A DNA stretch of 64,000 nucleotides from Alphaproteobacteria bacterium (GTDB lineage: Bacteria > Pseudomonadota > Alphaproteobacteria > CBDBCS01). Positions 2,842-43,922 of the stretch are shown one piece after another. Made by a program: the position numbers and the translations under genes. The first letter of the stretch is position 1. Each line of letters begins with the position of its first letter. The stretch is from assembly GCA_965203415.1 (NCBI GenBank), contig CBDBCS010000006.1, forward strand, positions 67,942 through 131,941. The letters are read 5' to 3'. The notes beneath the pieces are model-generated. The model was given only the letters and a program-made list of their open reading frames with translations. It was not told where the DNA came from and did not search any database.

Positions 2842-5805
2842 ATGTCTATCGAAACGACTCAAGGAATCATTCGCCCGGTCTCCATCGAGGGCGAAATGAA
2901 GCGCTCGTACCTCGATTACGCCATGAGCGTCATCATTGCTCGGGCGCTGCCCGACGTCCGAGACGGGCTCAAGCCGGTGCATCGGCGGATTCTCCATGCG
3001 ATGCACGAGAACAGTTATTTCTCGACGCGGCCCTATCGCAAATCGGCTCGGATTGTCGGGGAGGTGATGGGGAAGTATCACCCACACGGCGACTCGGCCA
3101 TTTACGAGGCCCTCGTGCGCATGGCACAGGTTTTCTCCATGCGAGTCCCCCTCATTGATGGGCAGGGGAATTTTGGTTCTATGGACGGCGATAAGGCAGC
3201 CGCCATGCGGTATACGGAATCGAGACTCCAGAAAATCGCCGAGACGCTCCTGCAGGATATCGGGCACGAGACGGTCTCTTTCAAGCCCAATTACGATGAA
3301 TCCGAGCAGGAACCCGTTGTTTTACCGGCGACTTTCCCGAATTTACTCGCCAATGGGGCGAACGGCATCGCGGTCGGGATGGCGACCAACATTCCGCCGC
3401 ATAATCTAGGCGAGCTCTTGAGTGCCTGTATTCACCTGACACTGAACCCCGAGGCCACGCTCGCCGAGGTGAATCAGATCATCCCAGGGCCCGATTTTCC
3501 CACAGGCGGCATTATTCTAGGCCGGTCTGGCATCCAAGACGCCTATAAAGTGGGGCGCGGGTCTATTGTGGTACGCGCCCGCACGGCGTTCGAAACGGTC
3601 AATCATCGCGACGCCATCATCGTCACAGAGCTCCCTTATCAGGTCAATAAGGCTCGAACCATAGAACGCATCGCCGCGATGGTGCGCGATAAACAAATGG
3701 AGGGCATCACAGATATACGCGACGAGTCCGACCGACACGGCGTTCGGGTGGTGTTTGAACTCAAAAAAGAGGCCAGCTGTGAGGTCGTAGAGGCTCAATT
3801 GTTTCATTCGACCCCGCTCCAGACCAGTTTCAGTGCGAATGTTCTGGCTCTGGACGAAGACGGAAAGCCGACCCATTACGATCTGCTCAAATATCTGCGA
3901 GCCTTTTTGCGTTTTCGCGAAGAGGTCCTTTCAAAGCGGACCTTTTATTTACTCCAGAAAGCTCGGGTTCGGGCGCATGAATTATTGGGGCTCTTGTGTG
4001 CGGTGCGTCATCTGGACCGCGTCATAGAGCTCATTCGTCGTTCGACCTCGCCTCGCGAGGCGCGGGAGGCTCTATGTTCTCAGACGTGGGAGGCGGGTTT
4101 TATGGCGGCTTATATTCGTCTCATTGACGACCCGTCTTTTTCCGAAGAGGCCCCCGCTTATCGCTTATCGGAGGCCCAAGCGGTTGCGATTTTGGATTTG
4201 CGGCTCCATCGGCTCACGGCTTTGGAGCGCGACAAAATCACCCAAGAGTTCGACCAGCTGGCCGAGACCATTCGGCACTATCAAAGGATTCTCGCGGACC
4301 GAGACTTTCGTCTAGAGCTGATGCGCCAGGAGTTTCAAGACCTCTCGGACCGTTTTGCGACGCCTCGGCGGACGGAAATCCAAGAAGCCGGTGCCGAAAC
4401 CGACATAGAGGACCTCATCGAGCCGCAAGATGTCGTGGTGGTGGTCACGCGGAATGCCTATATTAAGCGCGTCCCGCTCTCGGAGTTCCGCTCGCAGCGG
4501 CGGGGCGGTCGAGGGCGCAGCGGCACCACGACGCGTGACGACGATGTTGTCGCGAATCTCTTTGTGGCGAACACGCATAGTCTATTGCTTGTTTTCACCG
4601 ACCGAGGGCAGGTGTATTCTTTGAAAGTCTGGCGTTTGCCTCAGGGGACTCGGGCTTCGCGAGGCCGGGCGCTTGTCAATTGTTTGCCTCTGGAGCCGGG
4701 AGAAACTGTCTGGACGCTTCTACCTGTCCCGGCCGACGCTCTCGAGACCCCTTATTCGATTGTCATGGCGACCAGTTTCGGGTCTGTCCGGCGCAACACG
4801 CTGGATCTTTTCACCAATCTGAGAAAAAATGGCAAGATCGCCATTCAGCTCAAAGAAGAAGAGCGGCTGGTCGGCGTAGAGCTCTGTACGGAGGCGCATG
4901 ATATTCTGTTATGTTCGGCTCAGGGGCGAGCGGTTCGTTTCTCGCTTGCCTCGTTGCGGATTTTTCAGAGCACGCGCTCGGCGGGCGTCGGCGGCATCCG
5001 GCTTGCCTCGGGCGACCGGCTTGTTTCGCTGTGCGTTCTGAACCGGAGTTCTCAAGACACAGAAACGCGACACAGTTATCTGCGATTTGCGGCTCTTTCG
5101 CGACGCCAGGAGGCCTTTGAGGCGGCGACGGCCGAGGCGGCCGAGGCAGAAACCGAGGCAGAAACCGAGGCGGCTGTGTCCTCTGCGGAAGGATTTCCGA
5201 CGCCGGCGCCGGCGGACGACGAGGAGGAATCGGAGGAAGCCCCGGTCTCTTTAGGCGACGGGCCTCTCAAGCCGGAAGAATACGAAGAACTCCAGGCGGG
5301 ACGGGAAAAAGAGCTTTTCCGCCAGCTCGAACAAGAGGAGGAATGGCTTCTCACGATTGCCGAGAACGGTTTTGGGAAGCGGACGTCCTCTTATGAATAC
5401 AGGCACTGTCAGCGTTATGCCAAGGGCGTCAAAGCCATGAACGTAGATGGAACTTCTCTTTTGACGGCGTTTCCGGTCTCGGACCGGGATCATATTATGA
5501 TGATAACGGACGCTGGGCAGACCATACGTGTGCCTGTTGCGGGCATCCGACCGGCGGGGCGCGTGACAAGAGGCGTGCGTCTCTTCCGCACGGCCGAGAA
5601 AGAGCGTCTCATTTCCGTCGCCCGCGTCGAGGCCGCCATGGCCGCCGAAGAAACGGCGGACGCGACCGAGGCGGAAGCAACGGCGGAAACGGCGGCGGAA
5701 ACGGCGGAGACGAACCCAGCAGGCCCAGGCCAGCCGACAGCCCCCGCAGAGGCACACAGAGAAGCCGTCGCCTCCATCGAAGAAACGGAAGAAACGACAC
5801 GGTGA
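2842..5805 (+). CDS. gyrA: DNA gyrase subunit A
   Basis: ORF 2833..5805. Motifs: [57 protein letters not shown] (active-site Tyr region AAMRYTE). ATG at 2842 preferred over TTG at 2833. Acidic/Ala-rich insertion in the CTD and an acidic tail. Confidence 0.97.
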
Positions 5806-35089: not shown

Positions 35090-37834
35090 TTACGGGTTTG
35101 ATTTTTGAGCCTCGACGGCTTGTTCGATCGTCTGTCGGATGCGTTCTAAAGCCACAGAGAGGCCTTCCACGGCGGGGCCACCGCCTTGAGCGAACGTGTC
35201 CTGGCCGCCGCCCGAACCTCTAATCGCGGAAATGCCGACTTTCAGCAGAGCCTTCGCCGAGAACCTATCTGTCAGGTCTGCCGACACAGCGACCATTAAA
35301 ATCGCTTTATTTTCAAAACGAGTCGCAAAGACAAAGACGGCTTTGCGTTTTTTGGTGCGGAAATCGTCAAAGAAGGCTCGGAGGTCGCCGGGGGCGGTCT
35401 CGACCTGGCATGTGTGGTAGGTAATCGGGCCGAATTGTCTGCCTTTCACAGCCCGGAGCAGCACGTTTTGCTTCTGATTCATCGTCAGAGCCTGAACTTG
35501 CGTATAGTAATCGCGGCGTTCCGCTAAGAGCTGTTGCAAACGCGCCACCAAATCCTTGGGCGCACACCGAAGAAGAGCCGTCGCGTCCTCTAGGATGGCC
35601 TCCTTTTTTTGCGTATAGGCCACGGCTTCGGCGCCCGTGACGGCCGTGAGTCGACGAATGCCAGCCGCAATAGAGGTCTCCTCTATGAGTCGAAAGGCCC
35701 CGATTTCGCCCGTCGCCTGCACGTGCGTGCCGCCGCAAAGCTCCACGGATTCCACGGGAGCGGCGGCGGAGGCGGCCTCTTCCGGGGGCACCGGTAGATC
35801 CGGGGGCGCCATACGCACGACCCGCACCTGGGCGTCATAGGTCTCGCCGAGCAGCGCCATCGCCCCGTACGCCAGAGCCGCCTCGCGCGCCATGAGCCGC
35901 GTTGTCACGGGCCAATTGGCGGCGATGGCGGCGTTGACCCGTGCCTCCAGAGCCCGCAACTCGGAAGAGCTTATTTTCTGAGGGTGAGAGATATCAAAAC
36001 GAAAACGCCCCGCCTCCACGAGCGACCCTTTTTGCGTGATATGGGGCCCCAATTCTGCGTGTAGAGCCGCATTGAGTAAGTGGGTCGCCGAGTGACTGGC
36101 TCGGAGTTTCTTGCGCCGAATCGCGTCTATCGTCAAGGTTGCCCGAGCCTGCGTCCGCAAAATCCCTGTCTCGAGGACGCCCTGGTGGGCAAAGAGGTCC
36201 TTCTGCCGCCGGCGGGTATTGGTCACTCGGAAGCGAGCCTCGGGGGTTATGATAAAGCCGTGGTCGCCCTCCTGCCCCCCGGCTTCGGCGTAAAAAGGCG
36301 TTTGATTCGTCAGAATTTCCACGTTCTCGACGGTTTTTCCCCCGGCATTGCCGGGATTTCCGGGATTTTCGGGCCCTTCCAGGGTCTCGCAAGGCTGCTG
36401 GTCCTGAAGCAGAGCCAAAATCAAACCTTCGGCCTGTTCGGCCTCATAGCCGAGAAACACCGTTGCGCCATATTTCTGCCGGAGGTCGAACCAGACTGGA
36501 GCCTCGGCCGAAGAGGCGATTTCGCCGCTGCCGGTCCAGTGTTCGCGCGATTTTTCGCGTTGGTTCTTCATGGCGGCCTCGAAGCCCGCTTCGTCCAAAC
36601 GGAGATGGCGTTCTCGCAGAATATCGGCGGTCAGGTCCAGCGGAAAGCCATAGGTATCGTAAAGCGTGAAAGCGACCTCTCCGGACAAAACGCCCTGAGA
36701 CGGAAGACCTTGGATCGCGCGGTCTAGAAGCCCCAGGCCTCGGTCGAGCGTTTTAAGGAAGCGTTGTTCCTCGTTTTTGATGGTTTCCTCGACCAGGGCG
36801 CGCGCCCGGACGAGCTCGGTGAAGTGTGCGCCCATCAGCTCGCCGAGACCCCGCACGAGACGCCATAGAAAGGGTTCTCGGATTCCCAAAAGATGCACGT
36901 GCCGCAGGGCTCTGCGCAAAATACGACGCAGCACATAGCCGCGTCCTTCTTTATCGGGCAGGACGCCTTCCGCAATGAGAAAACAGATCGTCCTGAGATG
37001 GTCTGCGATAATCCGGTAGCTGGGTAAGGTGGCGGGCGACGGCGTCTGCCCCGCCAAGGCTGCGATTTGGTCGATGAGGTGCTGGAATAAATCGATCTCA
37101 AAATTATTGTGTTTGCCTTGCAGAACGGCACAGAGTCGCTCCAGGCCCATGCCGGTGTCGATGGAGAGCTGCGAAAGAGGCTCCATCGTGCCCGTTTCCC
37201 CTTTCTGGAATTGCATAAAAACGAGATTCCAGATTTCGATAAAGCGATCGCCGTCTTGTTCTGGCGAACCGGGGGGGCCGCCTGCTACGGTTGGGCCGTG
37301 GTCATAATAGAGCTCTGTGCAAGGGCCGCAGGGGCCGACATCGCCCATTTGCCAGAAATTATCACTTGTCCGGATCCGAATGATTCGGTCGTCGCCGAAT
37401 CCTGCGCAGCGGTGCCAGGCCTCGGCGGCCTGGGTGTCGTTGTAATAGACGGTGGCCAAGAGGCGCTCTTGGGGGAGCCCCAGTTCTTTTGTGACAAAAT
37501 GCCACGCCAGCTCGACCGCGTTTTCCTTGGAGAGGGCGCCAAAGGCAAAATTGCCCAGCATTTCGAAAAAAGTGTGGTGACGAGCCGTATAACCGACATT
37601 GTCTAGGTCATTGTGTTTCCCGCCGGCTCGAACACATTTCTGAGAACTCACGGCCTTTTGGTAAGGGCGGCGTTCCAATCCCAGCAGGGCGTTTTTGAAC
37701 TGCACCATGCCCGAATTCACAAAGAGAAGACTCGGGTCGTTGCGCGGAACGAGCGGCGAAGAAGAGACCTCTTGGTGGCCGTTGGCCACAAAATAGTCTA
37801 GAAAGGCTCTACGAATGTCTACTAGGTTTGTCAT
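35090..37834 (-). CDS. alaS: alanine--tRNA ligase
   Basis: 914 aa. FLDYFVANGHQEVSSSPLVPRNDPSLLFVNSGMVQFK, HHTFFEMLGNF, editing-domain HSATHLL...CGGTHV. Confidence 0.97.
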   Translation of the reverse strand: MTNLVDIRRAFLDYFVANGHQEVSSSPLVPRNDPSLLFVNSGMVQFKNALLGLERRPYQKAVSSQKCVRAGGKHNDLDNVGYTARHHTFFEMLGNFAFGALSKENAVELAWHFVTKELGLPQERLLATVYYNDTQAAEAWHRCAGFGDDRIIRIRTSDNFWQMGDVGPCGPCTELYYDHGPTVAGGPPGSPEQDGDRFIEIWNLVFMQFQKGETGTMEPLSQLSIDTGMGLERLCAVLQGKHNNFEIDLFQHLIDQIAALAGQTPSPATLPSYRIIADHLRTICFLIAEGVLPDKEGRGYVLRRILRRALRHVHLLGIREPFLWRLVRGLGELMGAHFTELVRARALVEETIKNEEQRFLKTLDRGLGLLDRAIQGLPSQGVLSGEVAFTLYDTYGFPLDLTADILRERHLRLDEAGFEAAMKNQREKSREHWTGSGEIASSAEAPVWFDLRQKYGATVFLGYEAEQAEGLILALLQDQQPCETLEGPENPGNPGNAGGKTVENVEILTNQTPFYAEAGGQEGDHGFIITPEARFRVTNTRRRQKDLFAHQGVLETGILRTQARATLTIDAIRRKKLRASHSATHLLNAALHAELGPHITQKGSLVEAGRFRFDISHPQKISSSELRALEARVNAAIAANWPVTTRLMAREAALAYGAMALLGETYDAQVRVVRMAPPDLPVPPEEAASAAAPVESVELCGGTHVQATGEIGAFRLIEETSIAAGIRRLTAVTGAEAVAYTQKKEAILEDATALLRCAPKDLVARLQQLLAERRDYYTQVQALTMNQKQNVLLRAVKGRQFGPITYHTCQVETAPGDLRAFFDDFRTKKRKAVFVFATRFENKAILMVAVSADLTDRFSAKALLKVGISAIRGSGGGQDTFAQGGGPAVEGLSVALERIRQTIEQAVEAQKSNP

Positions 37835-38166
37835 CGTGCGGCCACCCTAACATAATTCTCTGGCGTAATCCTCTGGAAAAGACAAGAAGAGAGGCAAACA
37901 CGCAGAACACGACCGCGAGCCTCACACACCCTTCGCAGCAAATCTATAGCGTTTTCTGAAAATTATCCAAACAGGACGCACAACACGCACACATACACCG
38001 GGCACCGCCGGGGATTTTGGGCTCGCGCCCTCGCACGCTTTTCCCCCCAAAGTGGCCCCGGGACGGAACCAGCGTTTTATGGCTGGCTTATGGCGGAGGC
38101 CTCTCTAGGCCTGGCTGGCGGCGGGGCTTGTCCTCCTCGGCGAGCCCTGATCTGCTTCCAGGAGGG

Positions 38167-38598
38167 TCAGGCGTTCTCGACGGTGAGCCGCCCGTTTATA
38201 TCCTCGACCCCACCGGCGGGTGCCGTTCCCTCGAGCGTTGCCAATTGAGGCGCAAGTCCGCCTTCATTTGCGGGAATCGTCCGCACGATCTCGCCTTCTG
38301 GGTCGACGTACTCCAGGATGATGCTACGCGTTCCTTCGTCGAAACGCAAGCGAATTTCGCCGTTATCCGAGAAAGCGGCCAAGGCGGCTTCAGCCGCTTG
38401 GCGTTCGAATTGTTCGGCCTCCTGGGGAGAAGCTCCTCCATCCGGCGTCACCTCTCTGGGCTCGACGAAAGCTGTCACGACTTGGTCCGAGCGCAAATCG
38501 GGACTCGCACCGGGGGCCGCCGCAGGCACCAGAGGCCCGGCTACGGCTTCGGAACCCGGGGGGGCGAAAACATTAGGATTAAAACTGACCTCGGCCAT
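38167..38598 (-). CDS. FlaG-like flagellar protein
   Basis: IRLRFDEGTRSIILEYVDPEGEIVRTIPANE resembles the FlaG-family core. ATG at 38598 has an AGGAGG RBS and is preferred over 38685. Confidence 0.55.
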   Translation of the reverse strand: MAEVSFNPNVFAPPGSEAVAGPLVPAAAPGASPDLRSDQVVTAFVEPREVTPDGGASPQEAEQFERQAAEAALAAFSDNGEIRLRFDEGTRSIILEYVDPEGEIVRTIPANEGGLAPQLATLEGTAPAGGVEDINGRLTVENA

Positions 38599-38753
38599 AA
38601 GATCCTCCTTGAACTTGAAACAGAGACGGGCAGACGGCAAAACCAAACGGCAGGCCAGACAGCCCGGATCTCCTGAGTCTGACACATTATCAAAACGGTG
38701 TCAAGGCCTCGCGAGGTTTTATAAGACCGTTTCGGGCAAAAATCAAACAAAAA

Positions 38754-40160
38754 TCAAAAAAGGACGCCAGGGTTGAGAATGCCGTCCGGATCAAAAAGAG
38801 CCTTCAAACGCCGCATACAGGCCAAAGTGACAGGCGTATGAAAACGACCCAGAGCGGGCACCAAAAAGCGTCCGATGCCGTGCTCGGCACTGATGGTTCC
38901 GCCGTGAGCGACTGCCATCTGCTGGACGAGCGCCTGGATCTCGGACGCTTGGTGCTCCCAGGCTTTCGGAGACAGCTGCGCCCCGTTCGGACAGGCGACC
39001 GAATAATGGAGACTGCCGTCGCCTAAATGGCCGAAAGGGAGGCTCAAACAATCCGGGAAAAGCCTCGAGAGCTCAGATTCCAGCGTTTCGACGAAGCCAG
39101 GCAGGCGCGAGAGAGGCACGGCGATATCATTCTTGACGAGCTTCCCAAAATGGCCGGCGGCCTCGGGCGTAAGCGTGCGCAGACGCCAAAAAGTTTCTTT
39201 TTGGCGTTCGCTCTGAGCAAACCAGGCGTTCAGCAGTTTGTCGTCGTGGCGTCCGAGCTCATCCTGCCACAATTCGGCCAGAGGCAGTGTCGGATGATTC
39301 GTCGTCAGCTCTGCCAGCAGCCACCAGGCGGGAGCGGAGTCCAGCTGTAGATTCAAGCCTCCGGCTTGGACGGCGGTGCGAGCCAGAGGCCCTGATAGGA
39401 CCTCAAAAGCCGAGAGAAAGTCCTCGAAAAGAGCCCGCCAGCTGCAAAAGAGCTCCAAAGCATGCGCGAGCGAAGCAACGCCCAACAGACAGAGAACCGA
39501 TTGCTGAGGACGGCGATAGAGCTTCAAATGAGCGGCGGTCAAAATCGCCAGCGTGCCCTCGCTTCCGACCAAGAGGGGTGTCAAGGCATACCCGGCGTTA
39601 TTTTTGGGCAGCACGACGCGCTCTTTATAGATTTCGCCGGTGCCTAAGACGGCCTCCACGCCCCAGACGAGGGCCCGAGCCATGCCGTATCGAACGACAT
39701 GGATGCCCCCTGCATTGGTCGACAAAAGCCCGCCGAGCGTCGCCTGATCCTGACTTCCGAACTCCAGGGGGAAGTGGAGATGGTGCGTCTCGGCGAGGGC
39801 CCGGGCTTCGGCGAGGGTCATGCCTGCCTCTACGGTCATGGTCTGGCTCTGGGCGTCGAGGGCTCGGAGGCGTTTCATGCGCTCCAGGGTCAGTAAAATC
39901 GGCTCCGGCCCTTCTGCAGAGCCCCTGCAAGGCGTCGAGCCCCCCACGAGGCCGGTGTTGCCGCCCTGTATCTGCAGAGGCGTACGTGTTTCCCGACAAT
40001 AGCGGCAAATAGTTGCGACGTCCTCGGTCGTCCCCGGGAGCAGATGGAACCGGCACGCGCCCTCGAGGCGTTTGCGCCAGTCGGTCAAACGAGGCTGCGT
40101 TTGGTCCGGCGAGGCGAGCTCGGTATCCGAAAGACGGGCGCGCAACGCTTCCAGAGTCAC
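38754..40160 (-). CDS. FAD-linked oxidase (GlcD / D-2-hydroxyacid dehydrogenase family)
   Basis: 468 aa. FAD-binding PCMH region LLPGTTEDVATICRYCRETRTPLQIQGGNTGLVGGSTP, C-terminal GGTISAEHGIG...FDPDGILNPGV. GTG start. Confidence 0.85.
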   Translation of the reverse strand: MTLEALRARLSDTELASPDQTQPRLTDWRKRLEGACRFHLLPGTTEDVATICRYCRETRTPLQIQGGNTGLVGGSTPCRGSAEGPEPILLTLERMKRLRALDAQSQTMTVEAGMTLAEARALAETHHLHFPLEFGSQDQATLGGLLSTNAGGIHVVRYGMARALVWGVEAVLGTGEIYKERVVLPKNNAGYALTPLLVGSEGTLAILTAAHLKLYRRPQQSVLCLLGVASLAHALELFCSWRALFEDFLSAFEVLSGPLARTAVQAGGLNLQLDSAPAWWLLAELTTNHPTLPLAELWQDELGRHDDKLLNAWFAQSERQKETFWRLRTLTPEAAGHFGKLVKNDIAVPLSRLPGFVETLESELSRLFPDCLSLPFGHLGDGSLHYSVACPNGAQLSPKAWEHQASEIQALVQQMAVAHGGTISAEHGIGRFLVPALGRFHTPVTLACMRRLKALFDPDGILNPGVLF

Positions 40161-40800
40161 GATGACACAATCAACAGCAGGGGCACAGCAGAGTCACAGC
40201 AAGACCACCGCCTGATGGTGACGGGCAGACTCGAGGGCCATTCTACAGAGGCAATGCGCCAGTCGGTCAAACGAGGCTGCGTTTGGTCCGGCGAGGCAAG
40301 CTCGGTGTCTGAAAGACGGGCGCGCAACGCTTCCAGAGTCACGATGACACACTCAACAGCAGGGGCACAGCAGAGTCACAGCAAGACCACCGCCTGATGG
40401 TGACGGGCAGACTCGAGGGCCATTCTACAGAGGCAATGCGCCAGTCGGTCAAACGAGGCTGCGTTTGGTCCGGCGAGGCAAGCTCGGTGTCTGAAAGACG
40501 GGCGCGCAACGCTTCCAGAGTCACGATGACACACTCAACAGCAGGGGCACAGCAGAGTCACAGCAAGATCGCCACCTGATAGTGACGGGCGGACTCGGGG
40601 GCCATTCTACAGAGGCAATGCGCCAGTCGGTCAAACGAGGCTGCATTTGGTCCGGCGAGGCGAGCTCGATGTCCGAAAGACGGGCGCGCAACGCTTCCAG
40701 AGTCACGATGACACAATCAACAGCAGGGGCACAGCAGAGTCACAGCAAGACCGCCACCTGATAGTGACGGGCGGACTCGGGGGCCATTCTACAGAGGCAA
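40073..40800. repeat. 182-bp x4 tandem array = first 28 codons of the FAD-oxidase gene + ~95 nt upstream
   Basis: ORFs 40157..40342, 40339..40524 and 40521..40706 all begin MTLEALRARLSD(T/I)ELASPDQ(T/M)QPRLTDWR. Exact 182-nt register. Confidence 0.92.
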
Positions 40801-40928
40801 AAGGAGGCGGAAAGGCGGAAAAAACGATGCACATGGTTCTCGACCGGACGGGACCGGGACTCTTCAAAAAAAACAGACCTGCCTCCCGGAATGATTCCGG
40901 AAATGACCCCGGGAACACTCTCCTGCAC

Positions 40929-42512
40929 GATGCCTAGACCGACCCTTGGGCGAGGTCTCGCCTTCCGGCGGCACTTCCGCGGAGCGACCGCCCCCCCTAG
41001 AGGAAGCCTCCGCCTTTCGCCCCGGAATCATCCGGGACCGTGCCTCGGCCCCCCGGTGCCCCGCCCTCCCCAGCCGGCGGCACGACGAAGCGTAACGACG
41101 CACCATAGAGGGCGAAAAAGACAGAACCAGCACCCAGGATAAGCCGGAATAAACCGGGCCAACCCGGCTCAGGAGAACGCTTCTTTTCCACACTCAAGGG
41201 CTTCTTCTACGGGCGTTTTCTCATTCTCAGCTTGTGCCTCCGACAGTGATAACGATGCCTAGACCGACCCCCTTGGGCGAGGTCTCGCCTTCCGGCGGCA
41301 CTTCCGCCGAGCGGCCTGCTCCCCCTAGAGGAAGCCTCCGGCTTTCGCCCCGGAATCATCCGGGACCATGCCTCGGCCCCCCGGTGCACCGCACCCCAGG
41401 CGGCACGACGAAGCGTAACGACGCACCATAGAGGGCGAAAAAGACAGAACCAGCACCCAGGATAAGCCGGAATAAACCGGGCCAACCCGGCTCAGGAGAA
41501 CGCTTCTTTTCCACACTCAAGGGCTTCTCTACGGGCGTTTTCTCATTCTCAGCTTGTGCCTCCGACAGTGATAACGATGCCTAGACCGACCCTCTTGGGC
41601 GAGGTCTCGCCTTCCAGCGGCACTTCCGCCGAGCGGCCTGTTCCCCCTAGAGGAAGCCTCCGTCTTTCGCCCCGGAATCATCCGGGACCGTGCCTCGGCC
41701 CCCCGGTGCACCGCCCTCCCCAGCCGGCGGCACGACGAAGCGTAACGACGCACCCTAAAGGGCGAAAAAGACAGAACCAGCACCCAGAATAAGCCGGAAT
41801 AAACCGGGCCAACCCGGCTCAGGAGAACGCTTCTTTTCCACACTCAAGGGCTTCTCTACGGGCGTTTTCTCATTCTCAGCTTGTGCCTCCGACAGTGATA
41901 ACGATGCCTAGACCGACCCTCTTGGGCGAGGTCTCGCCTTCCGGCGGCACTTCCGCCGAGCGGCCTGCTTCCCCTAGAGGAAGCCTCGGTACCTCGGTGC
42001 CCCGCCCTCCCCAGCCGGCGGCACGACGAAGCGTAACGACGCACCATAAAGGGCGAAAAAGACAGAGCCAGCACCCGGGATAAGCCGGAATAAACCGGGC
42101 CAACCCGGCTCAGGAGAACGCTTCTTTTCCACACTCAAGGGCTTCTTCTACGGGCGTTTTCTCATTCTCAGCTTGTGCCTCCGACAGTGATAACGATGCC
42201 TAGACCGACCCTCTTGGGCGAGGTCTCGCCTTCCGGCGGCACTTCCGCCGAGCGGCCTGCTCCCCCTAGAGGAAGCCTCCGCCTTTCACCCCGGAATCAT
42301 CCGGGACCGTGCCTCGGCCCCCCGGTGCCCCGCCCTCCCCAGCCGGCGGCACGACGAAGCGTAACGACGCACCATAGAGGGCGAAAAAGACAGAGCCAGC
42401 ACCCAGGATAAGCCGGAATAAACCGGGCCAACCCGGCTGAGAACGCTTCTTTTCCACAATCAAGGGCTTCTCTACGGGCGTTTTGTCAGCTTGTGCCTCC
42501 GACAGTGATAGC
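40929..42512. repeat. ~325-bp x5 tandem array beginning with the last 7 codons + stop of tldD
   Basis: gatgcctagaccgaccc at 40929, 41254, 41576, 41903, 42195 (periods 325/322/327/292). tcagcttgtgcctccgacagtgata (stop + ITVGGTS) heads each unit and the real tldD end at 42486. Confidence 0.9.
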
Positions 42513-43922
42513 GTCGATTCGAACGGTCGGTTGCCCGACGCCGACGGGGACGCCTTGGCCGTTTTTGCCGCATGTCCCCATGCCGCCGTCAAGCGCAAAA
42601 TCCGTCCCAACCATAGAGACCTTGGTCATCACATCCGGGCCGTTCCCGATCAGAGTCGCACCTTTGACGGGGTGCGTGACTCGGCCGTTCTCGATTTGAT
42701 AGGCCTCTGTGCAGGTGAAAACGAAATTCCCGTTCGTGATATCCACCTGGCCGCCTCCGAAGGAGACGGCATAGAGCCCCTTGGAAACCGAGCCGATAAT
42801 CTCGCTAGGGTCGTGGGCGCCGGGCGTCATGAAGGTGTTCGTCATACGAGGCATGGGGGCGTGGCAAAAGGATTCTCGCCGGCCGTTCCCCGTAGGAGCC
42901 ATCTTCATCAGCCGCGCATTCTGGCGGTCCTGCATATAGGCCTTGAGGACCCCATCCTGGATGAGGACCGTCCTGCCGGTTGGGGTTCCCTCGTCGTCGA
43001 CGCTCAAAGAGCCGCGTCGGTGCTCCAGCGTCCCGTCATCCACGACGGTCACCGCCGAAGAGGCGACTTTTTCCCCAAGCTGCCCCGAGAAAAGAGACAG
43101 ACTCTTGCGATTAAAGTCCCCCTCCAGCCCGTGCCCCACGGCTTCATGGAGCAAAATCCCTGGCCACCCGGGGCCCAGCACGACGGGCATCTCGCCGGCG
43201 GGGGCCGGCCGGGCTTCGAGATTGACCTCGGCCTGGCGCAGAGCCTCCGAGGCGATGGTCTTCCAGTTTTCTTCCTCCAGGAAGCGATGATAGGGTTCTC
43301 GGCCGCCGCAGCTCATGCTGCCTTCCTCGCGTCGGCCGTCCTTGCTCGCAATGACCGAGACCGACAGACTCACGAGGGGACGGATGTCCGCTACCCGAAA
43401 CTGATCCGGACGGAGAATCTGGACCGCTCGCCACGAGCCCGCCAGCCGAATCGTCACCTGCTGGACACTGGAAGAGCGGCTCCGGACAAAAGCGTCTATC
43501 TTCGACAATAAGGCGATTTTATGCTCTTTCGACAAATCCATGAGCGGATCGTCGGGCCGATAGACGGCTCGGTTGGTCCGAGCGGGCATCGCCGCCGAGG
43601 TTTGCGTCCAGCCGTCGCCGACCGTTTTGACGGCCTGGCCGCTCTTCTGGAGAGCCTGAGGCGTCAGAGCCCCCGAATAGGCATACCCGGTCCGCTCGCC
43701 GAAAACGCCGCGGAGGCCGAAACCCTCGGTGAGCGTGTCGCCCGCATCTTGCAGCCGGCCTTCGGTCCAGGTGAAAAATTCGCTGCGACCGTATTCCAGA
43801 TAGAGCTCGCCATCGTCGGCGCGGTGCAAATGCGTCCCGAGGCTTTTGAAGATCTGACTTTCGTCCAGCTCGCCGTGGCGGAAGAAAATAGCGTCAGTTT
43901 GGTGAATGAGTTCCGTTTGCAT
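42486..43922 (-). CDS. tldD: metalloprotease TldD
   Basis: 478 aa. HEAVGHGLEGDFNRK zinc motif. C-terminal ...QPTVRIDAITVGGTS. Confidence 0.93.
   Translation of the reverse strand: MQTELIHQTDAIFFRHGELDESQIFKSLGTHLHRADDGELYLEYGRSEFFTWTEGRLQDAGDTLTEGFGLRGVFGERTGYAYSGALTPQALQKSGQAVKTVGDGWTQTSAAMPARTNRAVYRPDDPLMDLSKEHKIALLSKIDAFVRSRSSSVQQVTIRLAGSWRAVQILRPDQFRVADIRPLVSLSVSVIASKDGRREEGSMSCGGREPYHRFLEEENWKTIASEALRQAEVNLEARPAPAGEMPVVLGPGWPGILLHEAVGHGLEGDFNRKSLSLFSGQLGEKVASSAVTVVDDGTLEHRRGSLSVDDEGTPTGRTVLIQDGVLKAYMQDRQNARLMKMAPTGNGRRESFCHAPMPRMTNTFMTPGAHDPSEIIGSVSKGLYAVSFGGGQVDITNGNFVFTCTEAYQIENGRVTHPVKGATLIGNGPDVMTKVSMVGTDFALDGGMGTCGKNGQGVPVGVGQPTVRIDAITVGGTS

Follow-up and report, generated by a model that had tools for sequence, protein, structure and literature searches.

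A chain of overlapping short open reading frames at the start of an alphaproteobacterial oxidase gene, probably a by-product of minisatellite-type tandem duplication

An intact gene for an FAD-linked oxidoreductase and its upstream neighbor tldD lie on the minus strand of the window (the whole stretch of 64,000 nucleotides that was analyzed), and two tandem arrays stand between them. The features of the locus, numbered by window position, are as follows:

38754-40160, minus strand: FAD-linked oxidoreductase gene of the GlcD family, intact, 468 aa, GTG start (PF01565 and PF02913)
40073-40800, minus strand: tandem array of 4.0 × 182 bp (TRF, repeat family D2 and unit alignment)
40073-40254, minus strand: unit D, which belongs to the real gene (start 40160)
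40255-40436, minus strand: unit C, a stub (start 40342)
40437-40618, minus strand: unit B, a stub (start 40524)
40619-40800, minus strand: unit A, the distal stub (start 40706)
40157-40342, minus strand: stub ORF C, 61 codons, its TGA overlapping the real GTG (GTGA at 40160-40157)
40339-40524, minus strand: stub ORF B, 61 codons, GTGA overlap with ORF C at 40342-40339
40521-40706, minus strand: stub ORF A, 61 codons, GTGA overlap with ORF B at 40524-40521
40703-40918, minus strand: open frame of 71 codons that begins in unique upstream sequence and ends on the GTGA of unit A (40706-40703)
40927-42512, minus strand: neighboring array of about five units of 292-328 bp (TRF; repeat families D1, D4 and D5)
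42486-43922, minus strand: tldD, 478 aa (PF19289, PF19290 and PF01523), upstream neighbor of the oxidase gene

TRF assigned to the array at 40073-40800 a period of 182, 4.0 copies and 97% matches with no indels. In each unit, 94 upstream nt precede 88 coding nt counted from the GTG, or 29 codons (MTLEALRARLSDTELASPDQTQPRLTDWR) and one base, and GTGACTCTGG is present at all of the array starts (40706, 40524, 40342 and 40160). An earlier note on this DNA had given the unit as 182 bp made of ~95 nt plus 28 codons; the length holds, and the composition is corrected here. The ORF coordinates and peptides in that note agree with the ORF listing, and the reiterated start regions, the change of frame at each junction and the GTGA stop/start overlaps that it described were all recovered by TRF and in the ORF listing. 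The 4-nt overlap occurs at all four junctions, with the final stub overlapping gene 38754-40160. Searches of the stub ORFs against Pfam and NCBIfam returned no match, and ORF 40703-40918 had no match in Pfam. No inverted repeats were detected at the array, and the 182-bp unit has no further occurrence elsewhere in the genome. The head-to-tail arrangement, the high identity and the lack of mobile-element features are those of a minisatellite (VNTR). Within each unit, the 9-nt word GTGACTCTG occurs twice, at the start codon (40160-40152) and 37 nt upstream of it (40197-40189), and the upstream copy opens an 8-codon frame (MTLLCPCC) that is followed by a stop.

As judged from its sequence, the product of gene 38754-40160 is probably a D-2-hydroxyacid dehydrogenase. 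Its nearest solved relatives are 3pm9 (Rhodopseudomonas) and human D2HGDH (6lpn, D-2-hydroxyglutarate dehydrogenase), with alignment over residues 15-466, and its score falls under the NCBIfam cut-offs for GlcD. Homologs align with the oxidase from residues 1-15 on and have in common an L..L...DWR..y.G pattern, which indicates that the 29 codons copied in the array do encode the N-terminus and makes the GTG a credible start. Among 31 related genomes, the genome contigs and the metagenome contigs, the best oxidase homologs are only 34-42% identical, and no nucleotide-level relative of the locus was found in the same set. Exact-protein look-ups with the oxidase, one stub ORF and TldD retrieved no other assembly, and a search of RNA runs found none that contains the oxidase gene. 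Directly downstream of the oxidase gene lies a 172-aa ORF (38167-38685, minus strand) with no Pfam match at E ≤ 0.001.

The spacer between tldD and the oxidase gene measures 2,325 nt, and the two arrays fill all of it but ~126 nt (40801-40926). Every unit of the array at 40927-42512 opens with the last codons and the stop of tldD, and the last D5 copy (42483-42513) sits on the tldD stop. One unit of this 327-bp array is ~30 nt shorter. In the only same-order relative available (genome G001, locus L178 on contig C7), tldD and the oxidase gene are also neighbors on one strand, ~110 nt apart, and the 182-bp leader array is absent. This synteny was found in none of 176 more distant loci. The difference between ~110 nt in the relative and 2,325 nt here indicates that tandem duplication of the two gene ends has enlarged the spacer about twenty-fold, working from either side. 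The relative's 4.9-kb contig carries five separate tandem arrays (seven TRF rows, three of which describe one array), which points to a repeat habit common at the level of the order. Also recorded in locus L178 were a 7-bp × 10 microsatellite within the tldD-oxidase spacer (1331-1440), an in-frame 36-bp × 2.9 repeat (DRGDRCDRGDQS) inside the oxidase gene (386-495) and a 149-bp × 2.2 repeat over the 5′ end of ORF 3022-4200 (3991-4312).

Across the genome that contains the window, 189 TRF rows with a period of at least 60 merged into 102 loci, which make up 4.1% of the 2.47-Mb assembly. By crude gene calls, 46 of the arrays are intergenic, 36 lie inside genes, ~14 straddle a 5′ end and ~8 a 3′ end. 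When one breakpoint of a tandem duplication falls inside a gene and the other lies beyond it, an intact copy stays at the edge of the array, so arrays at gene ends are what neutral growth with subsequent purifying selection should produce. A start codon and its N-terminal codons are duplicated in no fewer than five further loci:

C6:338876-339922: start-duplicating array of 274 bp × 3.8, with stubs of a 219-aa gene
C6:848841-849669: start-duplicating array of 410 bp × 2.0
C4:208095-208491: start-duplicating array
C6:802216-803589: start-duplicating array
C6:1678742-1679642: start-duplicating array

None of these five loci shows coupling: their stubs stop either 21-206 nt short of the next start or 50-59 nt beyond it. 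At C6:338876-339922, the GTG has become GGG in two of the three stub starts, and the stub frames overrun the next start by 50-59 nt.

In Ehrlichia ruminantium, tandem repeats of non-coding regions actively expand and contract (PMC10710844, citing Collins 2005 and Frutos 2006). The likeness lies in a small alphaproteobacterial genome with many head-to-tail, long-period arrays that are mostly non-coding and inflate spacers. The present lineage differs from E. ruminantium in being unrelated, uncultured and of ~58% G+C, and its unit includes a gene start, which results in chained ORFs. Copy-number change between strains is here only hinted at by contig depth and composition.

The chain of ORFs follows from simple arithmetic. 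Chaining requires that the period plus one be divisible by three, and 182 + 1 = 183 (182 = 2 mod 3). The GTGA overlaps are present because the gene starts GTG-A, the period of 182 is 2 mod 3 and the 94 upstream nt contain no in-frame stop. Genome-wide, the stop-free fraction of 32-codon windows is 0.50, and ORF 40703-40918 shows that the chain frame has no stop in the unique upstream sequence either. Multiplying the chance of a period of 2 mod 3 (one in three) by that of ~31 stop-free codons gives a chance of about one in six that any duplication including a GTGA start would form such a chain. The array at C6:848841-849669 is a natural control for this argument, as its start is also GTGA and its period 2 mod 3, but its frame is closed and its stub stops 206 nt before the next start. 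The ORF chain is no more than chance would give; by this reckoning, the oxidase chain would be one case in a dozen in which the arithmetic is exact. The locus is a gene-end-anchored minisatellite of a known kind with an arithmetically forced ORF relay.

The substitutions among the units were examined in the stub-ORF frame. The four units differ at 12 sites (11 transitions), and the inter-unit difference is 2-4%. Of the 12 changes, 4-5 are synonymous, compared to 27-36% expected (P = 0.4-0.7), so that the purifying selection looked for as a mark of a leader was not found in the stub ORFs. Exchanges in the read-through tail are P/S, P/L and W/R, and, compared with the real N-terminus, stub A has the changes T13I and T21M. 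These substitutions fit neutrality in what is a small sample. Stubs B and C differ from the real N-terminus by three changes, all of them synonymous, which is too few sites to weigh.

The longest perfect run at lag 182 (40171-40386 = 40353-40568) indicates that the newest duplication copied a 182-bp piece that begins and ends within the upstream segment and does not match the ORF register. Units A and B have five variants in common in the 5′ part of the upstream segment, where C and D carry the alternatives, and A and D have three in common (gattg, TCG and CTC) versus B and C. The units are mosaics. The latest event acted on a three-unit array whose members were already 3-4% different, and growth was stepwise, staggered and, as in minisatellites, probably recombinational. 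At the original breakpoints the join is blunt (TTGCCTC...CTGGCGCA). Breakpoint microhomology was considered and rejected, as the GCCTC found close to either end is shifted by one base, which leaves the junction blunt. The array is not brand new; it has persisted, as a useful element also would.

Taken together, we consider it probable that the chain is an arithmetic by-product of minisatellite-type tandem duplication in a repeat-rich genome. The array would have grown from the oxidase's native 5′ region by replication slippage or unequal recombination, with breakpoints after codon 29 and 94 nt upstream of the start. Given this placement, each added unit would be a copy of the promoter region plus a stub inserted upstream, and the last unit would stay joined to the intact gene, leaving the gene undamaged. 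A stub that ends exactly on the next start would spare translation of the gene, which may explain the persistence of the array, and a selected function would not be required. The stubs are probably translatable if transcribed: sharing the 94 nt upstream and 88 nt downstream of the real start, the stub starts should initiate equally well on any transcript that includes them. Ribosomes on a stub would stop on the next GUG, which would keep them from running through the real start in another frame and from lengthening the protein, and would make this array unusually harmless; re-initiation would be possible there, and translation of the stubs with possible re-initiation is a reasonable expectation if the array is transcribed. 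The locus offers a clean natural example in which a start-straddling duplication gives rise to decoy starts, small ORFs and a new junction with the gene unharmed, and it illustrates that regulatory-looking geometry can come from arithmetic alone. With its small uncultured genome and ~4% long-period arrays, many of them at gene ends, the lineage is a useful system for the birth of ORFs and promoters by duplication.

The repeat junctions also assemble promoter-like sequences:

40240-40270, minus strand: TTGACC-N19-TAGAAT, promoter-like, a consensus match only
40422-40452, minus strand: recurrence of the same promoter-like site
40604-40634, minus strand: recurrence of the same promoter-like site

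At each junction site, codons 24-26 of the upstream stub supply the −35, and the upstream sequence of the unit itself supplies the −10. In unit A the TAGAAT is present and the −35 is absent, and the ancestral arrangement has no junction promoter-like site. These three sites are 10-of-12 matches and the only sigma-70-like ones on the gene strand in 40100-41000, in a lineage whose promoter rules may differ. Terminator-like sites were no more frequent than in shuffles. An alternative that we regard as unlikely is that the array acts as an amplifier built of tandem promoters, in which the junctions would give units B, C and D a −35, the duplication would have been kept for raised or restored oxidase transcription after spacer inflation and the GTGA relay would only prevent interference. 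Beyond the exclusive occurrence of the three sites and the missing −35 in unit A, such a role would suit the relative's gene order, in which the oxidase gene ~110 nt behind tldD may be co-transcribed, while five copies of the tldD tail intervene here, and it would suit units that persisted long enough to diverge by 2-4%. However, a 19-nt spacer is poor for sigma-70, a stricter scan with spacers of 16-18 nt found nothing, the sigma-70 consensus may not be that of this uncultured lineage and an explanation of this sort is not required for many of the genome's other arrays. A junction-born promoter is possible, to judge from the hexamers, as a live but minor option. Promoter creation or capture at a tandem-duplication junction is reportedly what happened in the rnk-citT duplication of Lenski's Cit+ E. 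coli, in work attributed to Blount and colleagues in 2012. The present array would resemble that case in that a new junction sets a −35-like hexamer before an existing −10-like hexamer, here at every repeat junction. It differs in that the element comes from the gene's own coding sequence instead of a neighboring promoter and has a 19-nt spacer.

The earlier note had read the chain as a relay of translationally coupled leader ORFs that feeds into the real gene. If such a relay were selected, ribosomes would load on the distal stubs, re-initiate at each GUGA and boost or regulate translation of the oxidase, whose start lacks a Shine-Dalgarno sequence. The exact 4-nt overlaps at all four junctions would suit such a relay, but they are forced by the arithmetic. 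Likewise, no core Shine-Dalgarno sequence (GGAG, GAGG or AGGA) occurs within 20 nt upstream of the oxidase GTG, although this is not special in a genome in which such cores are found at only 29% of crude gene starts versus a 15% background. The 4-nt overlap is the normal coupling geometry in this genome (75 of 1083 same-strand neighbor pairs), and overlap of stop and start is a well-documented means of coupling translation in bacterial operons and leader uORFs, as in the iraD leader (PMC5574718) and IS91 orf121-tnpA (PMC13181058). The oxidase locus has in common with these systems the identical 4-nt overlap and a downstream start without an obvious Shine-Dalgarno sequence. In the known systems a conserved gene or leader lies upstream; the oxidase locus has stubs that duplicate the downstream gene, show no selection and are absent in the nearest relative. 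No stalling motif, alternative RNA structure or known leader family was found. Folding of one leader and of two units was no better than that of shuffles (z +0.52 and +1.73), and an Rfam search (E up to 1, 37800-42600) gave only a chance-level M23 match at 41663-41713, outside the array. With the arithmetic, the neutral divergence of the stub peptides, the out-of-register latest duplication, the lack of structured RNA, the leaderless same-order relative and the uncoupled other loci all pointing away from it, a selected relay is unsupported, and we hold it to be quite improbable. We give similarly little credence to a combination of both ideas, in which the array would be an adaptive, self-made expression module that supplies three extra junction promoters and a lossless translational relay to a gene that lost co-transcription with tldD. 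Were a junction promoter or the relay active, the locus would represent a simple route from slippage to altered expression.

The locus was found in contigs of four separate samples (X1-X4) from one study. Contigs cross the unit-to-unit junction in all four, including a single 212-nt contig in X4 that goes back 182, and the depth of the repeat contigs relative to the flanking gene was 2.7 in X1, 3.0 in X4, 1.8 in X2 and ~1.2 in X3. The recurrence of the junction together with the raised depth argues that the array is not an assembly artefact. Mean depth of 2.7-3.0× fits 2 to 4 copies of the words kept on the main path; short-read contigs cannot count units. Over unit positions 1-134, the main path keeps unit type b in X1 and X4 and type d in X2 and X3, in contigs that drop minor branches, and in X2 a minor contig connects the left flank with a type-2 unit. 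Position 40170 is C in all four samples and A in the window, and the unit-A variants (40669 and 40716) occur in none of the four samples' contigs, which drop minor branches. Because of these dropped branches, the differences between samples reflect composition and are not a reliable unit count, and missing variants are not proof of absence. An assembly artefact or strain chimera, with a true locus of fewer or homogeneous units, would account for the single version of positions 1-134 in each run, the C at 40170 and the absent unit-A variants, but a 182-bp junction in every sample and repeat contigs at 1.2-3.0× flank depth speak against it, and we regard it as highly improbable. In X3, the flank on the gene side has about three times the depth of the upstream flank (130 versus 41), and a second strain in that sample probably shares the gene without the upstream sequence.
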